Part shown: positions 1 through 7,498 of the stretch, in pieces
How positions within the stretch are numbered: the first letter of the stretch is position 1
How the letters are laid out: every line of letters starts with the position of its first letter
Assembly: GCF_000020225.1 (NCBI RefSeq)
Contig: NC_010655.1
Coordinates: forward strand, 2,520,001-2,552,000
DNA length: 32,000 nucleotides
Origin: Akkermansia muciniphila ATCC BAA-835
Lineage (GTDB): Bacteria; Verrucomicrobiota; Verrucomicrobiia; Verrucomicrobiales; Akkermansiaceae
Direction of reading: 5' to 3'
Translations under genes and position numbers: made by a program
Notes under the pieces: generated by a model
What the model was told of the DNA's origin: nothing
The model's database searches: none
What the model saw: only the letters and a program-made list of their open reading frames with translations

Positions 1-964
1 CATAATGTTCCACCAGAACCGGATGGACGTCAGGCCGCGCCGCCAGCATGCCGATGCCGAAGATGGCCGCTACCAGCAGGCAAATGCCAGCCAGGCGCAG
101 ACGTTTTTTTCCGCCGGGGGCGGAAACGGCCTGCAGTTCATCCGTCGCCGCCGTTCCGGCAGATGCCAGACCGGGTTTGCGGCGCAGGTATCTGCCAAAA
201 ACACAGGCAAAATGCCACAGCAGCCCTACAGCGATGATGTAGGAGGACCATTTGGGCATTTGCTCCAGGGGATTATGGGAAGCACGGAGAATGGAGATAA
301 GCCTGCCCGGATGCAGGGAATCCTGGCCCCAGCTCATCTGGTACAGCGTCCAGCCGGAAAGGCGCAGAGGCTCATTCATGCGGATAACGGCGTCATACTG
401 ACCGCCGGATTCCGGAAAAACGGTTATCTGGGATTCATAGGATTTAGGCTTGGAAGTCCCCGGATAAAACTCCGGCACAAAGCGGTTCAGGCGCAAATCA
501 AACGGAAGGGAATACTCGTGCACCCGGTCCCCCTGGGGCAGTTCCACCTGTTCCACAGCCACCGTCATTTTGTTGCCCAGCATGATGCCGGCCAGCAGCA
601 GCAAAATTCCCCCATGAGCCACCAGCACGCCTGCGTGCCTCCAGGTCCACCGGATACGGAATACCCCGCCTATGAGCAGGTTGGCGAACAGCAGGACACA
701 AGTAATGCCCATGCCGGGCAAAGGCAGGGAAATCAGGGAGTTCTCCCCGCCCAGCGGTATCAGCACATAAGCCGCCCCGAAAAAAGACTCTATGGCAGCC
801 TCCGACCCCATGGCAGAAGACAACCGCACCTGGTGCAGCGTCCCGGCAAAGGTCAGCACCAGAAGGATCAGCATCAGGGCAATGCCTAAGCCGTAGCTTC
901 CGGCAAAATTCCAGAGGCTGCGTCCATATTTTTTCCATACCGCATCCGTTCGTTCCCTGTCCAT
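1..964 (-). CDS. ResB/Ccs1-like cytochrome c biogenesis membrane protein, N-terminal 321 codons (gene continues past the left edge)
   Basis: My own translation of the minus-strand frame that the ORF track omits, because it has no stop before the window edge: MDRERTDAVWKKYGRSLWNFAGSYGLGIALMLILLVLTFAGTL...FVPEFYPGTSKPKSYESQITVFPESGGQYDAVIRMNEPLRLSGWTLYQMSWG...LAGICLLVAAIFGIGMLAA. It shows hydrophobic helices plus the ResB-type block (S-x-I/V-T-V, I-R-M-N-E-P-L, G-W-x-L-Y-Q). ATG at 964; in-frame TTG/GTG starts further upstream (to about 1010) are possible. It lies 90 nt downstream of rbr on the same strand. Confidence 0.65.
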   Translation of the reverse strand, partial: MDRERTDAVWKKYGRSLWNFAGSYGLGIALMLILLVLTFAGTLHQVRLSSAMGSEAAIESFFGAAYVLIPLGGENSLISLPLPGMGITCVLLFANLLIGGVFRIRWTWRHAGVLVAHGGILLLLAGIMLGNKMTVAVEQVELPQGDRVHEYSLPFDLRLNRFVPEFYPGTSKPKSYESQITVFPESGGQYDAVIRMNEPLRLSGWTLYQMSWGQDSLHPGRLISILRASHNPLEQMPKWSSYIIAVGLLWHFACVFGRYLRRKPGLASAGTAATDELQAVSAPGGKKRLRLAGICLLVAAIFGIGMLAARPDVHPVLVEHY

Positions 965-2602: not shown

Positions 2603-3247
2603 TTATCTTTCCACCGGTTTTCCGGAGAAAGTCCCGCTCCACGGTTCTTCCAGCCTGTCCGGGACGCTTTCCAACTCCCGGAGTATTTTCTCCCGCTCCC
2701 GGGAAATCCGCTCCTGATCCGCAGAGGCCGGAACAGGCTGCTCCCCGGGCAGAGGCATCAGCCCGTCCGCCATCCTGCCGCCGTCCGGGGCAATCGGAGG
2801 AGCAACAACCTTGCTGTCTTCATCCGTTTCCGGTTCAGGGCTGACCGGCTTCTGCTCATCCATCTTTCCGGTACTTTCCGGAACAGCCAGGTTCCGATAC
2901 AGGAACACCAGGTCCCCCGCCTCCACAGCGCCGCTGCGGATATCCGCAGGAATGCGCGCACGCCCCATTCGCTCCTCCGTCACAATCAGGTTGGCGACTC
3001 TGCATTTTTCTTCCCGGCCCGGAGATTGGGAGATAAGCACGGTTCCCGGTTCATAAACATTCCCGGCCAGAGCAATCAGCACATAATGATGATTAGGATA
3101 CACCTGCTCCACCTTGCCCACATATACGGGGGGAGGGGCTGCTTTCTTAACGGGCTGCTGCACCTGCTGGGAACAGGAGGCCCCCAGCACCACAAACGCC
3201 GCCAGAACAGGCAGGGAAACAATTCGTCTCATGGGGAGTTTTTTCAT
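2603..3247 (-). CDS. Hypothetical secreted protein / probable lipoprotein with a Pro/Glu-rich C-terminal half
   Basis: ORF 2603..3301. I prefer the internal ATG at 3247 (MKKLPMRRIVSLPVLAAFVVLGASCSQ), which gives a signal peptide followed by Cys and starts 4 nt after the ftsK stop. I recognise no family. Confidence 0.65.
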   Translation of the reverse strand: MKKLPMRRIVSLPVLAAFVVLGASCSQQVQQPVKKAAPPPVYVGKVEQVYPNHHYVLIALAGNVYEPGTVLISQSPGREEKCRVANLIVTEERMGRARIPADIRSGAVEAGDLVFLYRNLAVPESTGKMDEQKPVSPEPETDEDSKVVAPPIAPDGGRMADGLMPLPGEQPVPASADQERISREREKILRELESVPDRLEEPWSGTFSGKPVER

Positions 3248-3251
3248 CGTT

Positions 3252-5777
3252 TCATTCCACCAGCACCTTGCGTGGACGGTTGGTATTATCCGCCGGGGCA
3301 ATAATGCCGCGGGATTCCAGCAAATCCATCATGCGCGCTGCACGGCCGTATCCAATGCTCAAACGCCGCTGCAGCAGAGAGGTGCTTACCTTACGTTCCA
3401 CAACAGCCACTTCCAGGCACTTGGCATAGCATTCCTCTTCCGCGTCATCCAGCGGACTGTCCGCACCTCCGCGGGAAGGCTCGTCCAGAGACTTCTGAAC
3501 CTCTTCATGGAATTTCTGCTTGGCCTGGGAAGCACAGTGGGCCACCAGGGCTTCCACTTCATCGTCAGAGATAAAGGCTCCCTGCGCCCGCTCCACCTGG
3601 GCGGAACCCGGCGGCAAATACAGAAGGTCTCCCTTGCCCACCAGTTTTTCCGCCCCCTGCCTGTCCAAAATCACACGGCTATCCGTACCGCTCGCCACCT
3701 GGAAAGCGATGCGCGTCGGGATATTGGCCTTGATCGTCCCCGTCACCACCTGCCTTCTTGGCGTCTGCGTCGCCACAATAAGGTGGATGCCTGCGGCACG
3801 GGCCTTTTGGGTAAGACGTCCAATATTCGTTTCTATGTCCGCTCCTACTGTCTGCATCAGGTCCGCAAGTTCGTCAATAATAATGACGATGTAGGGGAAG
3901 CGTTCAGGAATAACTCCGTCGTCCTCCAGATCCAGTTCATCATCTTCTTCCACAGGCCATTCCCCCTGGGATTCCAGGTCTCTGGCAATGGATTCCGCCA
4001 AAGCTTCATCCACCTGCCCGTCTTCCGGTTCCTCCGTCTCTTGCGCAGGAACATCCGGCGGGCGCTTGTTGAAAGCTTCAAAGTTTCGCACACCCACCTT
4101 GGCAAAGCAATGATAGCGGTGCTCCATTTCATTCACGCACCAACGCAGGGCATTGGGAACTTTCTTGGGATCCGTCACCACCGGAACAATCAGATGCGGC
4201 AGCTTGGAATAAGGCTGCATTTCCACCACTTTCGGATCCACCAGAATAAGCCTCAGTTCATCCGGGCGGAATTTCAGGAGCATGGAGGAAATAATGCTGT
4301 TAATGCACACGGATTTTCCGGATCCGGTGGCGCCGGCCACCAACAGGTGCGGCATGGACGCCAAGTCCCCGATCACGGTACGTCCATACACGTCCTTCCC
4401 CAGCGCCAGCGGAATCTTTTTCTTGGGGGAACAAAAAGCGGGATCCTGCAAAAGTTCCCGCAGGGGAACGGCCACCTTCTTCCGGTTGACGATTTCAATA
4501 CCTACCGTATCCTTGCCCGGAATGGGGGCCACGATGTTCACGCTTTCCGCCTTGGTCGCCAGCGCAATATCCTTCGCATACTGGTCAAAAGTATTTACGC
4601 GCACGCCGCGCGCGGGATACACTTCATAACGGGTGATGGTCGGGCCTCGGGTAATATCCCCAGGCGTCACGTCCACGCGGAATGTCGTCAGAGTATCAAT
4701 AATCTTCTGCTGTATTTCCAGCATTTCTTCCTTGTCCTCTGCCGTAGGGCCTTCCGGCTTTTCTTCATAATGCAGCAGTTCAAATGGAGGCAGCTCATAC
4801 TCGCGGAATTCCTCCGTGGGCGGAGTGGACAATTTGGAAAAAGGCTGTTCTTTGGGCGCGGGCTTCATTTCCGCCGGTTCCGCAACGGTAATCCTGGGGC
4901 GCGGAGCCAGGGGAAGGCGGCCCTGGGTTCGCGGGGCGCTGGGAGGCGGAACAGAATCCTCCGGCTTGGACGGAGCAACCGCCGCTGCTTCATGATACAA
5001 ACTTTCCAGATCGTCCCCGGTGCGCTGCAGACGGGGAACGGAAGCCCGGCCCTTTCTAACCGGTCTGGGAGCGGACAAAGCGGCATCTTCCATGCTGGCC
5101 CTCACGCGGGCAGCTTCCCTGGCAAGCAGAGCGGTCTGTCGCGCCAGTCTTTTTTCCTTCCTGTTCATACGCCAGGCACGCCATTCCCGCAGCATGGCCC
5201 GGCAAAACGGCCGGGGACGCATCCCGGCGGCATAAACCAAGGCCAGCAAATAGCCCAGCCCGGAAAACGCCAGCACAGCGGATCTGCCGGCCAACGGAAA
5301 AAACAAACCAGTTCCCAGCAAATGACCCACCAGCCCCCCGGCCCCCTGGACCTGGTGGCGAGCCACCCACTCATTTCCCGGCACATGCCCGGCTGCCAGA
5401 AACAGGCATCCGAACAACAGCAGGAACAAACCGCCGTAAACCACGCTGCGGGGCAGTCTTCCATAGTGGAGCAGACGGTAAAGCCCCCACCACTCCAACA
5501 GAACAACCAGCATCCAAGCCATGCCTCCCAGCGTCCAATAAAAAATCCCCGCACCATACAATCCTACCGTTCCCAGCACATTGGAGGTACCCGGAATTAC
5601 CTGCCCGGAACCATTTAAATAACTCCAGCCTATTTCCCGCACATCAAATGTCAGCATAGCAGCCAGAAGAGCCGCCCCCCCCAACAAAGACACGACGCCC
5701 CATACCATTCCAATCCAAACAGGGGAACGCCCCTCTTCATGCTCAAATGCATGATGCTCCTGCATATCCAATGCCAT
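3252..5777 (-). CDS. ftsK: DNA translocase FtsK/SpoIIIE
   Basis: N-terminal membrane helices, a Pro/Ala-rich linker, a motor domain with Walker A (LLVAGATGSGKSVCINSII) and Walker B (YIVIIIDELADL), and a C-terminal winged-helix gamma domain (LLQRRLSIGYGRAARMMDLLE). The track ORF extends to a TTG at 5852. I prefer the ATG at 5777 (MALDMQEHH), but the start is uncertain. Confidence 0.9.
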   Translation of the reverse strand: MALDMQEHHAFEHEEGRSPVWIGMVWGVVSLLGGAALLAAMLTFDVREIGWSYLNGSGQVIPGTSNVLGTVGLYGAGIFYWTLGGMAWMLVVLLEWWGLYRLLHYGRLPRSVVYGGLFLLLFGCLFLAAGHVPGNEWVARHQVQGAGGLVGHLLGTGLFFPLAGRSAVLAFSGLGYLLALVYAAGMRPRPFCRAMLREWRAWRMNRKEKRLARQTALLAREAARVRASMEDAALSAPRPVRKGRASVPRLQRTGDDLESLYHEAAAVAPSKPEDSVPPPSAPRTQGRLPLAPRPRITVAEPAEMKPAPKEQPFSKLSTPPTEEFREYELPPFELLHYEEKPEGPTAEDKEEMLEIQQKIIDTLTTFRVDVTPGDITRGPTITRYEVYPARGVRVNTFDQYAKDIALATKAESVNIVAPIPGKDTVGIEIVNRKKVAVPLRELLQDPAFCSPKKKIPLALGKDVYGRTVIGDLASMPHLLVAGATGSGKSVCINSIISSMLLKFRPDELRLILVDPKVVEMQPYSKLPHLIVPVVTDPKKVPNALRWCVNEMEHRYHCFAKVGVRNFEAFNKRPPDVPAQETEEPEDGQVDEALAESIARDLESQGEWPVEEDDELDLEDDGVIPERFPYIVIIIDELADLMQTVGADIETNIGRLTQKARAAGIHLIVATQTPRRQVVTGTIKANIPTRIAFQVASGTDSRVILDRQGAEKLVGKGDLLYLPPGSAQVERAQGAFISDDEVEALVAHCASQAKQKFHEEVQKSLDEPSRGGADSPLDDAEEECYAKCLEVAVVERKVSTSLLQRRLSIGYGRAARMMDLLESRGIIAPADNTNRPRKVLVE

Positions 5778-5989
5778 ACCTGTTCCTATCCTAGCAACTC
5801 TCCGCCCCAAACTCAAGGCCAAACCGGAAAGAAGAGGAATTGCTCGAATCAACTTCCCGCAAGCCTGAAAGCGCCAACTTCCGGCTCGGAAATACGGTCT
5901 TTATGTACTTTTTCCTCCCTAGGAGAGCATCTCTGAAAAAAGCCCTTTCCCTACCTGAGAAAATACTGGTCCCGCATCTCCAAATCAAT

Positions 5990-6330
5990 AAAACCGAAGC
6001 AATTTCAATACTTATTTTTCATATCTATTTGATTATTTATTATTAGCATAAATTTTTATTACAAAAAAATGTATCGTTCGACATTTTTTATGCTTCATGA
6101 AACATCCGGCGGATTTCAAATTCGGTGTCAATAGTAATCCCTTAAAAAAAACTGTTTATTATTATTTATGGATATAACGATAAGAGGAGAATTTTGTAGA
6201 AATTATGTGTTTAATCTTATTAAGTTGTTAACAATTAGTTAATTATATTAAACTACAATATTCCTATTTTTTTAATAGGATTTGAAATCCGCTAATTAGA
6301 AACCTCTTCCCATGATACAGCAATTACAAT
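5990..6330. promoter_or_regulatory. Extreme AT-rich trough inside the 863-bp gene-free divergent region between ftsK and wza; presumed promoter/regulatory region of the polysaccharide locus
   Basis: No ORF of 60 aa or more lies between 6046 and 6716. By eye this stretch is roughly 20-25% GC against mid-50s% GC flanks. It contains several palindromes and the inverted-repeat pair listed below. I could not assign a convincing -35/-10 pair. Confidence 0.5.
6109..6292. repeat. Perfect 13-bp inverted repeat pair (GCGGATTTCAAAT at 6109-6121; ATTTGAAATCCGC at 6280-6292) flanking a 158-bp AT-rich segment
   Basis: Read directly from the sequence. The arms are exact reverse complements. Each arm is embedded in a near-palindrome, GGATTT(C/G)AAAT(T/C)C. 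A perfect TTGACA hexamer lies on the minus strand at 6126-6131, just inside the left arm. Confidence 0.9.
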
Positions 6331-6343
6331 CTGTTAAACAGAT
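6329..6343. promoter_or_regulatory. 15-nt perfect palindrome ATCTGTTAAACAGAT; candidate binding site for a dimeric regulator
   Basis: Read directly: 7+7 symmetric positions around a central A. It lies 37 nt downstream of the right inverted-repeat arm and 373 nt upstream of the wza ATG. Confidence 0.35.
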
Positions 6344-6431
6344 ACGGCCCTTATGTGCAGGAGCGTCAGTCAATCTCTCCCCAGCCTACCTGTCGGAACC
6401 AATCTTGACAGCCTCCCCTTATTATTGCTGA

Positions 6432-6460
6432 TCATTTCCCTGCTTTTTCATCTGAGGGGA
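6432..6460 (+). repeat. Copy 1 of a 29-nt motif (TCATTTCCCTGCTTTTTCATCTGAGGGGA) shared with 30360-30388
   Basis: Hand alignment with copy 2 gives 24 matches, 4 mismatches and 1 single-nt gap, including an exact 11-mer TTTCATCTGAG. The motif ends about 255 nt upstream of the wza ATG. Confidence 0.6.
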
Positions 6461-6556
6461 AATATACCTGCCTTTTTCAAATACTTTCTTATTTCAAACA
6501 AAAAAAATCAAAATCATCAAATTTAAAATGATGACTGAACATAGAGCGGCCTTTTT

Positions 6557-6582
6557 CTTTCAAACTTCCGGAAGATTGAAAG
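6557..6582. promoter_or_regulatory. 26-nt near-perfect palindrome CTTTCAAACTTCCGGAAGATTGAAAG in the wza leader
   Basis: Read directly: 12 of 13 symmetric pairs, with a central CTTCCGGAAG core. It lies about 135 nt upstream of the wza ATG. It could act as a DNA operator or an RNA hairpin. Confidence 0.35.
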
Positions 6583-6715
6583 CATGGAAGGCATCACGCC
6601 ATTCCCGTGGTGCTTCCGGGGCAAGGAAGAAAATCCTTTGAGCCGGAATGGCCTCTTTCCCTGTTTTTAGCATCATCTTTCCTCCTAAAAGCAACGTTTC
6701 CTCCTTCCTCACCAA

Positions 6716-7498
6716 ATGAATACAAACAACCTCATCAATAAAGCCATTCTGTGCTCCCTGGCCATGGCCGGAGCCGCTCTCCTGCCTTCCTGCGTCAGCC
6801 CCAAGGAAGTCCTCTATATCCAGGATGTTTCCGGAAACTCCAGAGAAACCATCAAGGCAAACTACCAGACAACCATCCAGAAGGATGACCAGCTCTATAT
6901 CGCGGTCAGCAGCAAGCAGCCGGAGCTCACCGCCCCCTTTGCCATGTCTGAAATCGGTTCCGCCAGCGGCACCTCCAGCAACAAACCCAAAGGATATCTG
7001 GTGGATGCCCAGGGCTGCATCGTCCTGCCCGTCATCGGCAAAATGAAGGCTGCGGGCAAAACCTGCTCCCAGCTGGCCTCCGACATTGCCGCGACTCTCA
7101 AGAGCAATGACTACATCCGGGATGCCTCCGTCAATGTTCAGATCATGAACTTCAAATTTTCCGTTCTGGGCGAAGTCAATGCTCCCGGAACCTACACTAT
7201 TGAAGGCCAGCGCGTAACCATTCTTGAGGCCATCAGCCGGGCCGGAGACCTTAATATTGACGGCAACCGGGACGTCACGTTAATCAGGGAAACCAACGGA
7301 ACCCGTCAAATCGCCAGCATCGACCTGCGCAGCAAGGATTTGTTCACTTCTCCTTATTATTACATCCAGCAAAACGACATCATTTACGTGACACCCTCAG
7401 ACCGCAAGGTCAACACGCGCAGCGACGCTGCTCAATGGTACGGCTGGGGTCTCTCCGGGCTTGGTGTCACTCTGGCCGTGATCGCCCTGTGCCTGTAA
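6716..7498 (+). CDS. wza: Polysaccharide export outer-membrane protein (Wza/BexD/CtrA family: Poly_export + SLBB)
   Basis: 260 aa. It has a signal peptide ending in Cys (ALLPSC), a PES-type motif region (YIQDVSG...DDQLYIAVSS), an SLBB-like block (FSVLGEVNAPGTYTIEGQRVTILEAISRAGDL) and a C-terminal hydrophobic helix. Confidence 0.9.
   Translation: MNTNNLINKAILCSLAMAGAALLPSCVSPKEVLYIQDVSGNSRETIKANYQTTIQKDDQLYIAVSSKQPELTAPFAMSEIGSASGTSSNKPKGYLVDAQGCIVLPVIGKMKAAGKTCSQLASDIAATLKSNDYIRDASVNVQIMNFKFSVLGEVNAPGTYTIEGQRVTILEAISRAGDLNIDGNRDVTLIRETNGTRQIASIDLRSKDLFTSPYYYIQQNDIIYVTPSDRKVNTRSDAAQWYGWGLSGLGVTLAVIALCL

Follow-up and report, generated by a model that had tools for sequence, protein, structure and literature searches.

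Known Invertible Promoters

Invertible promoters of the capsule (CPS) operons of Bacteroides fragilis were reportedly described by Krinos in 2001, and the Mpi recombinase by Coyne in 2003. In these invertons the segment holds a complete promoter of the TAnnTTTG type, and upxY (NusG-like)/upxZ come first in the operon. The whole promoter is likewise carried by the invertible segment of E. coli fimS, which has 9-bp inverted repeats and adjacent genes for its recombinases (FimB/FimE). Insertion sequences can form hybrid or junction promoters, in which the −35 hexamer is located in the end of the element and the −10 hexamer in the flank or in the other end.

In Akkermansia, the repeat motif CGGATT..AATCCG, together with an “Akkermansia promoter motif,” is said to have been defined by Jiang et al. 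in 2019. The same repeat motif was found again as “inverton group 138,” which has 32 members in ATCC BAA-835 and to which no invertase group was linked (PMC11892184). A long-read survey found the most intergenic invertons per genome in Verrucomicrobia, where only Akkermansia was sampled. The closest described system is the cps1 inverton of A. muciniphila MucT, which has been validated experimentally (Gracia et al., mBio 2026; PMC13343947): with CGGATT..AATCCG as the repeat motif, long reads were recovered in both orientations, and PCR-digest and qPCR evidence was obtained too; capsule-positive Percoll fractions contain more of the ON orientation and capsule-negative fractions more of OFF; mice and humans harbor both states; the repeats are conserved throughout the genus; and cps1 expression responds to mucin as well. 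The text and supplement of that study name no promoter, recombinase, or sequence-level ON/OFF assignment, and promoter position, recombinase, and ON sequence are named neither there nor in the group 138 report (PMC11892184). Transcription start sites mapped in A. muciniphila show −35 and −10 sequence bias, and ~10% of them are leaderless (PMC4782308).

The cps1 Inverton in the Reference Genome

The window considered here is a stretch of 32,000 nt from A. muciniphila ATCC BAA-835 (NC_010655.1, forward strand, 2,520,001 to 2,552,000). Between two divergent genes, ftsK and wza, it contains an AT-rich segment enclosed by short inverted repeats; the following features are referred to throughout.

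3252-5777, minus strand: ftsK, divergent from cps1; ATG start at 5777, 841 aa
6109-6121, no strand: left inverted-repeat arm, the 13-mer GCGGATTTCAAAT, exact
6110-6124: putative left recombination core, 15 bp, CGGATTTCAAATTCG; central C
6122-6279, no strand: invertible segment, 158 bp, 24.5% G+C
6126-6131, minus strand: TTGACA, putative −35 hexamer (TGTCAA on the plus strand), two bases from the left core, on the invertible DNA
6144-6151, minus strand: T8 tract (A8 on the plus strand), candidate UP-like element, 5′ of the −35
6202-6231, minus strand (like TTGACA): promoter-like site inside the segment, TTAACA-18-CATAAT; 10/12 matches in a consensus scan
6227-6232, no strand: HpaI site GTTAAC, asymmetrically placed in the segment
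6277-6291: putative right recombination core, 15 bp, AGGATTTGAAATCCG; central G where the left core has C
6280-6292, no strand: right inverted-repeat arm, ATTTGAAATCCGC, the exact reverse complement of GCGGATTTCAAAT
6293-6298, plus strand: TAATTA, putative −10 half of a split promoter, in the fixed flank on the wza side
6299-6715, plus strand: long leader between the switch and wza, including a 26-bp palindrome (6557-6582)
6716-7498, plus strand: wza (amuc_2077), first gene of the cps1 capsule operon; Pfam Poly_export + SLBB

This element is the published cps1 inverton (amuc_2077-2098), known since 2026; the two objects are identical in position (upstream of amuc_2077 and next to ftsK), repeat motif, primers, and HpaI site. 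Table 1 of PMC13343947 places amuc_2077 at 2,526,716-2,527,498, which at an offset of 2,520,000 is 6716-7498 of the window; CGGATT and AATCCG stand at 6110-6115 and 6286-6291; the published inverton primers map to 5962-5981 (plus strand), 6384-6402 (minus strand), and 6123-6144 (minus strand); and orientation was assayed in that study by an asymmetric digest with HpaI, whose site lies at 6227-6232. Between primers 5962 and 6402, a cut there would yield pieces of ~268 and ~173 bp from the reference orientation and ~211 and ~230 bp from the flipped one. A prophage has been reported inserted at one arm in strain Akk1610; a phage database search with the intergenic region of the window as the query returned no match.

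A sequence-only reading of the window had reported exact 13-bp arms around 158 AT-rich bp, a TTGACA on the minus strand at 6126-6131, and ~420 bp between the element and wza; all of these sequence claims checked out, the distance measuring 423 bp from the right arm. It had also put the chance probability of the 13-mer repeat below 0.05, which is roughly what simulation gives: when the 938-bp intergenic region was simulated 3000 times with a first-order Markov model, ~1.5% of the runs contained a perfect inverted repeat of 13 bp or longer around a loop of 20-440 bp. Because a repeat of this kind arises by chance at that rate, by itself it is suggestive, not conclusive.

The G+C content of the segment, 24.5%, compares with 51-65% for the neighboring genes. 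Downstream of wza the cps1 operon continues with wzc, cpsB, and a sugar transferase gene and reaches the end of the window, and its genes have capsule functions throughout. On the other side, the start of ftsK is ~330 bp from the left arm; the genes upstream of cps1 in the window encode rubrerythrin, a GNAT acetyltransferase, and FtsK, along with two ORFs, at 5-889 (plus strand, 294 aa) and 2603-3301 (minus strand, 232 aa), which lie upstream of ftsK and have no Pfam match. The longest ftsK ORF begins with TTG at 5852 and would encode 866 aa, and the annotated start differs among assemblies: the protein is given as 818 aa, as 841 aa, or as a split gene of 656+178 aa.

How close is this locus to the classical switches? 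The cps1 inverton resembles the B. fragilis CPS invertons in its short inverted repeats, a segment on the order of 200 bp that would carry promoter sequence, its position upstream of a capsule operon, its ON/OFF subpopulations in the gut and, in all likelihood, a recombinase encoded elsewhere. Unlike the Mpi-type elements, however, it has GGATTTSAAATCC-type arms and a promoter-like element, TTGACA, which differ from the Bacteroides repeat consensus and TAnnTTTG promoter, and an operon that starts with wza, wzc, cpsB, and the sugar transferase gene, without upxY/upxZ. The analogy with Bacteroides drawn in the sequence-only reading thus holds for the way in which the switch works, but not for family membership, given the differences in repeat motif, promoter type, and operon head. 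The cps1 switch is like fimS in its short inverted repeats, in a segment that would bring promoter sequence to the genes of a surface structure, and in recombination sites whose arrangement would suit a tyrosine recombinase; in contrast, fimS has adjacent recombinase genes and a whole promoter in its segment, whereas no recombinase was found in the window or near 18 clusters of related switches. Its kin are found within the genus: the group 138 elements, which bear the motif attributed to Jiang et al., have the same core, segments of 149-200 bp, a TTGAC-containing motif, and genes for surface proteins or polysaccharides alongside. The cps1 switch belongs to this Akkermansia CGGATTTSAAATCCG family and to neither the Bacteroides nor the fimS family.

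Inversion in Natural Genomes

The 158-bp segment inverts in nature. Nine loci encoding exactly the same Wza protein were obtained from public contigs. Three of these (L001; L003, CP174100.1; L004) match the window exactly over the 1000 bp that precede wza; another three (L006; L007, from the complete 2.66-Mb genome CP024740.1; L008) match it exactly over the same 1 kb except at 6122-6279, and reverse-complementing these positions leaves zero mismatches. Since only 6122-6279 is flipped, strand exchange lies within the 13-bp arms, which is what site-specific inversion would produce. A scan of metagenome contigs for TTGACNNCGRATTTSAAATCCG yielded at least 117 stretches. Among the matches listed, at least eight are copies of cps1, in which TTGAC points toward ftsK, as in the window, twice and toward wza six times. 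When these copies are pooled with the exact-Wza loci, the window itself, and L074 (a flipped cps1 switch found in the family scan described below), 9 copies among the matches listed are in the window orientation and 10 are flipped. Nor is inversion confined to one allele: a diverged cps1 allele, ~70% identical in the segment, is present in both orientations, as are two further family members (6 vs. 2 and 5 vs. 1, among the matches listed).

These observations bear on the most skeptical view of the element, that of a chance inverted repeat or an assembly artefact mimicking inversion. A perfect 13-bp repeat does arise in ~1.5% of simulations, and assemblers can mis-orient short segments between repeats, but both orientations occur in complete genomes, many independent metagenomes, two diverged alleles, and several paralogous loci, and PCR-digest, qPCR, and long-read evidence has been published; the probability that chance or artefact accounts for the element is next to nil. 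The proposal of an inverton upstream of a surface-polysaccharide operon has thus been borne out, by natural assemblies in both orientations and by the published cps1 work, down to its prediction that TTGACA, which now faces ftsK, would face wza after inversion: L007 and L074 show exactly this configuration.

The length of the segment is constant among cps1 alleles that are ~70% identical (L002, L135, L148, L189), and the core-to-core distance stays at 152 bp while the alleles differ at ~30% of positions. This constant spacing suggests a constraint on segment length, imposed, for example, by synapsis or DNA bending. The alleles also show a sharp boundary: between the window and L002, identity is ~70% from the switch to ~6450 and ~99% from there through wza, which suggests a breakpoint of recombination or horizontal transfer that separates the switch region from the capsule genes.

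Recombination Cores and the Akkermansia Family

A scan for GGATTTSAAAT-N(145-175)-ATTTSAAATCC in one genome per species, with TTGAC not required, found ten Akkermansia-labelled loci, which correspond to nine distinct elements (L044 and L068 being the same). In these loci, pairs of CGGATTTSAAATCCG are 149-172 bp apart, and each arm is a 15-bp palindrome with this consensus, to which the cps1 inverted repeat of the window conforms, as it does to the motif CGGATT..AATCCG. In MucT cps1 the outer half-site of each core follows the consensus and the inner one departs from it (CGAATTT, AGGATTT), which is why the perfect repeat is only 13 bp long.

What is the function of these palindromes? That each arm is part of a near-palindrome, GGATTT(C/G)AAAT(T/C)C, had been noticed at the outset; the property is evident in the 15-bp cores and common to the whole Akkermansia family. 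It had given rise to an alternative in which a dimeric regulator binds both arms as paired operators and draws the AT-rich DNA between them into a loop, with no inversion. The palindromes are what such a regulator would bind, but the arrangement of the locus is not fixed, inversion being directly observed as well as published, and since both orientations exist, paired operators are refuted as the sole explanation. Moreover, in all ten Akkermansia loci the central base of one arm is the opposite of that of the other, which fits the polarity of a recombination site and would be irrelevant to operators; we regard the operator view, which these data do not support, as highly improbable. The arm palindromes are best explained as a recombination core, in which inverted half-sites would flank a short crossover region and a single base pair would confer polarity. 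Their odd length would suit the 2-bp center used by serine invertases less well than a 7-bp overlap, which is common among the sites of tyrosine recombinases. A reading of the core as a tRNA anticodon stem-loop or phage att site was rejected, as the loop has 5 nt, not 7.

Similar sequences occur outside Akkermansia. Non-Akkermansia matches of the scan were rejected as invertons, being mostly tandem direct arrays, pairs with the same central base, and chance pairs. The arrays (L019, L052, and others, from Marinifilum and Cytophagales) have a period of ~160 bp and a GGATTTSAAATCC palindrome as their unit, with the central base always the same. A second class of elements, comprising L092, L098, L102, L141, L147, L165, and about 40 other metagenome loci among the matches listed, combines the same 15-bp core and adjacent TTGAC with inverted repeats of ~34 bp (...GGCGTCCCGGCGGATTTGAAATCCGCC / GGCGGATTTCAAATCCGCCGGGACGCC...); partner sites are 83-135 bp away, sometimes with three clustered cores, and the contigs have 46-51% G+C. 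In L141 and L165, a Bacteroidales-type tyrosine integrase is encoded ~6 kb away.

The Search for a Recombinase

Recombinases were sought by matching regular expressions to the motifs of the tyrosine and serine classes and by phmmer searches with E. coli FimB, FimE, XerD, and PinE as queries; the 4287 ORFs searched with phmmer came from the window and every locus retrieved. None was found among the ORFs of the window, in agreement with the sequence-only reading, nor within ~4-7 kb of any Akkermansia family member (18 clusters). The sole matches were the Bacteroidales-type integrase of L141 and L165, which belong to the different element class, and a Clostridium locus. The lack of a nearby recombinase agrees with the absence of an invertase linked to group 138 (PMC11892184). 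The cps1 switch is likely flipped by a trans-acting recombinase encoded elsewhere.

A Putative Split Promoter

What would the inverting segment deliver to the capsule operon? In 8 of the 9 distinct Akkermansia members TTGAC-NN-core is found at exactly one arm, and it is present in the window too. The family pattern 5′ of the core reads ...AAAAATTnTCA-TTGAC-NN-CGGATTTSAAATCCG, and A/T-rich tracts (AAAAATT, TTTTTTTT) precede TTGAC in most members. Both fixed flanks were compared in 18 clusters, representing ~10-13 independent loci among the matches listed. TA one base past the core (+1) occurs on at least one flank in 16 of these clusters and on both flanks in one cluster only; at the other 29 offsets, TA is found in 0-7 of the 18. 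TA at +1 is thus separated from TTGACN by exactly 17 bp, the −35/−10 geometry of a σ70 promoter. Behind the TA-bearing flank comes a gene that reads in the same direction, 3-90 nt away in most clusters and 424 nt away in MucT cps1, where it is wza. The genes behind TA flanks encode Chlamydia-PMP or PATR autotransporter-like proteins, a lectin-fold protein with a PEP-CTERM-like tail, sugar transferases, glycosyltransferases, and a TerD protein. Among the cps1 alleles, TAATT is kept in all, in a flank that is otherwise ~70% identical.

From the family-wide placement of TTGAC and TA, and from the lack of a common internal promoter, a split promoter is proposed: the −35 would reside on the invertible DNA, the core would serve as the spacer, and the −10 would be fixed on the regulated side. 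For the family as a whole (~30 elements, the cps1 switch included), we lean, by a little, toward the view that no member has a complete promoter and that each assembles one across the recombination site. The weakness of this proposal is in the −10 half, of which only TA is conserved, the final T, as a rule an important position, being present in about a quarter of members. The promoter scan used here requires T at the last −10 position, so it could not report TTGACA-17-TAATTA; in the window it reports only TTAACA-18-CATAAT. No description of a split layout was found in the published accounts of the cps1 inverton and of group 138.

The internal site is at the heart of the more conventional arrangement, in which a complete promoter (e.g., TTAACA-18-CATAAT, read from 6231 to 6202) would lie inside the segment and the arm-adjacent TTGACA would not be a working −35. 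There is precedent in Bacteroides CPS invertons and in E. coli fimS, both with complete promoters; the site scores 10/12 on the same strand as TTGACA; and the ON orientation it predicts is the same as in the split model. Yet the diverged cps1 allele lacks the site of the MucT copy, complete promoter-like sites are found inside the segments of 3 of 15 members on the relevant strand vs. 4 of 15 on the opposite strand, and the fixed TTGAC-NN-core geometry and the gene-side TA at +1 are left unexplained. An internal promoter is an unlikely explanation for the switch.

The split promoter also assigns the two orientations. In the flipped state (L007, L074), TTGACA-CCGAATTTGAAATCCGC-TAATTA points toward wza with 17-bp spacing; in the window, TTGACA-...-CGGATG points toward ftsK and the junction has no −10-like sequence. 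By this layout, the ATCC BAA-835 reference would be in the OFF orientation and the flipped form (CP024740.1) would be ON. Orientation counts are nearly even in assemblies, and a lean toward the presumed ON state (6/8) shows up only in the small, unbiased sample of metagenomes.

These elements can be assembled into a mechanism. A site-specific recombinase, acting in trans on the entire Akkermansia switch family, would exchange strands within the cores at 6110-6124 and 6277-6291, which are inverted with respect to each other through a single asymmetric central base pair; the exchange would flip the 158-bp segment and turn the capsule ON or OFF. The segment would supply only the upstream half of a σ70-type promoter, i.e., the A/T tract and the −35 TTGACA, with the core as the 17-bp spacer, while the −10-like TAATTA (6293-6298) would stay in the wza-side flank. 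In the flipped state the halves would join as TTGACA-CCGAATTTGAAATCCGC-TAATTA, and transcription would start near 6305, with a ~410-nt leader into wza (ON). In the window orientation, TTGACA would meet CGGATG, which is not a −10, on the way toward ftsK (OFF). A cps1 phase-variation switch that flips at the cores, with a presumed split promoter and a probably trans-acting recombinase, is with high confidence the best explanation overall. The proposed layout is like the insertion-sequence junction promoters in joining a mobile −35 to a fixed −10, but these arise by transposition or circle formation, whereas in cps1 the junction would be made by reversible inversion.

In one family member, the metagenome locus L193, both flanks have TA where the −10 would be, with a co-directional gene behind each, one for a GT2 glycosyltransferase and the other for a 389-aa protein; such an element would toggle between two genes rather than act as an ON/OFF switch.

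The wza Leader and Other Modes of Control

Inversion might, in principle, act without moving a promoter: the segment could place a terminator or roadblock in the path of transcripts from a fixed promoter, or change their leader RNA, or ftsK could be the main target. The published mucin regulation of cps1 implies additional control, the leader is long, and the divergent ftsK begins only ~330 bp from the left arm. However, a terminator scan of 5750-6800 found none on either strand, the ftsK-facing junction has no −10-like sequence, and in most clusters the gene behind the TA flank is 3-90 nt away, which leaves little room for attenuation. Taken together, these points make a non-promoter action improbable.

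Even with a split promoter at the core, the 423-bp leader of wza likely contains further promoters or regulators, because cps1 also responds to mucin. Comparison of 5700-6900 with Rfam, under a permissive threshold, turned up no RNA family beyond a snoRNA match at chance level, and the ops/JUMPstart element (GGCGGTAG) is absent from the wza leader. The leader does contain a near-perfect 26-bp palindrome, CTTTCAAACTTCCGGAAGATTGAAAG, at 6557-6582, with no T run after it; this could be a regulator binding site, possibly tied to the mucin response.

Implications for Akkermansia

Akkermansia muciniphila is a leading next-generation probiotic candidate. Its capsule, according to published work, governs association with the mucus layer vs. 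aggregation and biofilm formation, and in mice and humans the switch makes part of the cells capsulated and leaves the others bare. A reading of the sequence alone identified a real, experimentally confirmed phase-variation switch. The switch itself was already published in 2026; added here are a proposed split-promoter layout and the reading of the reference genome as OFF. Since ATCC BAA-835 would be OFF, orientation matters when capsule status is predicted from assemblies. And if the promoter is split, the OFF state would be very tight, and a recombinase bound to the core could compete with RNA polymerase.
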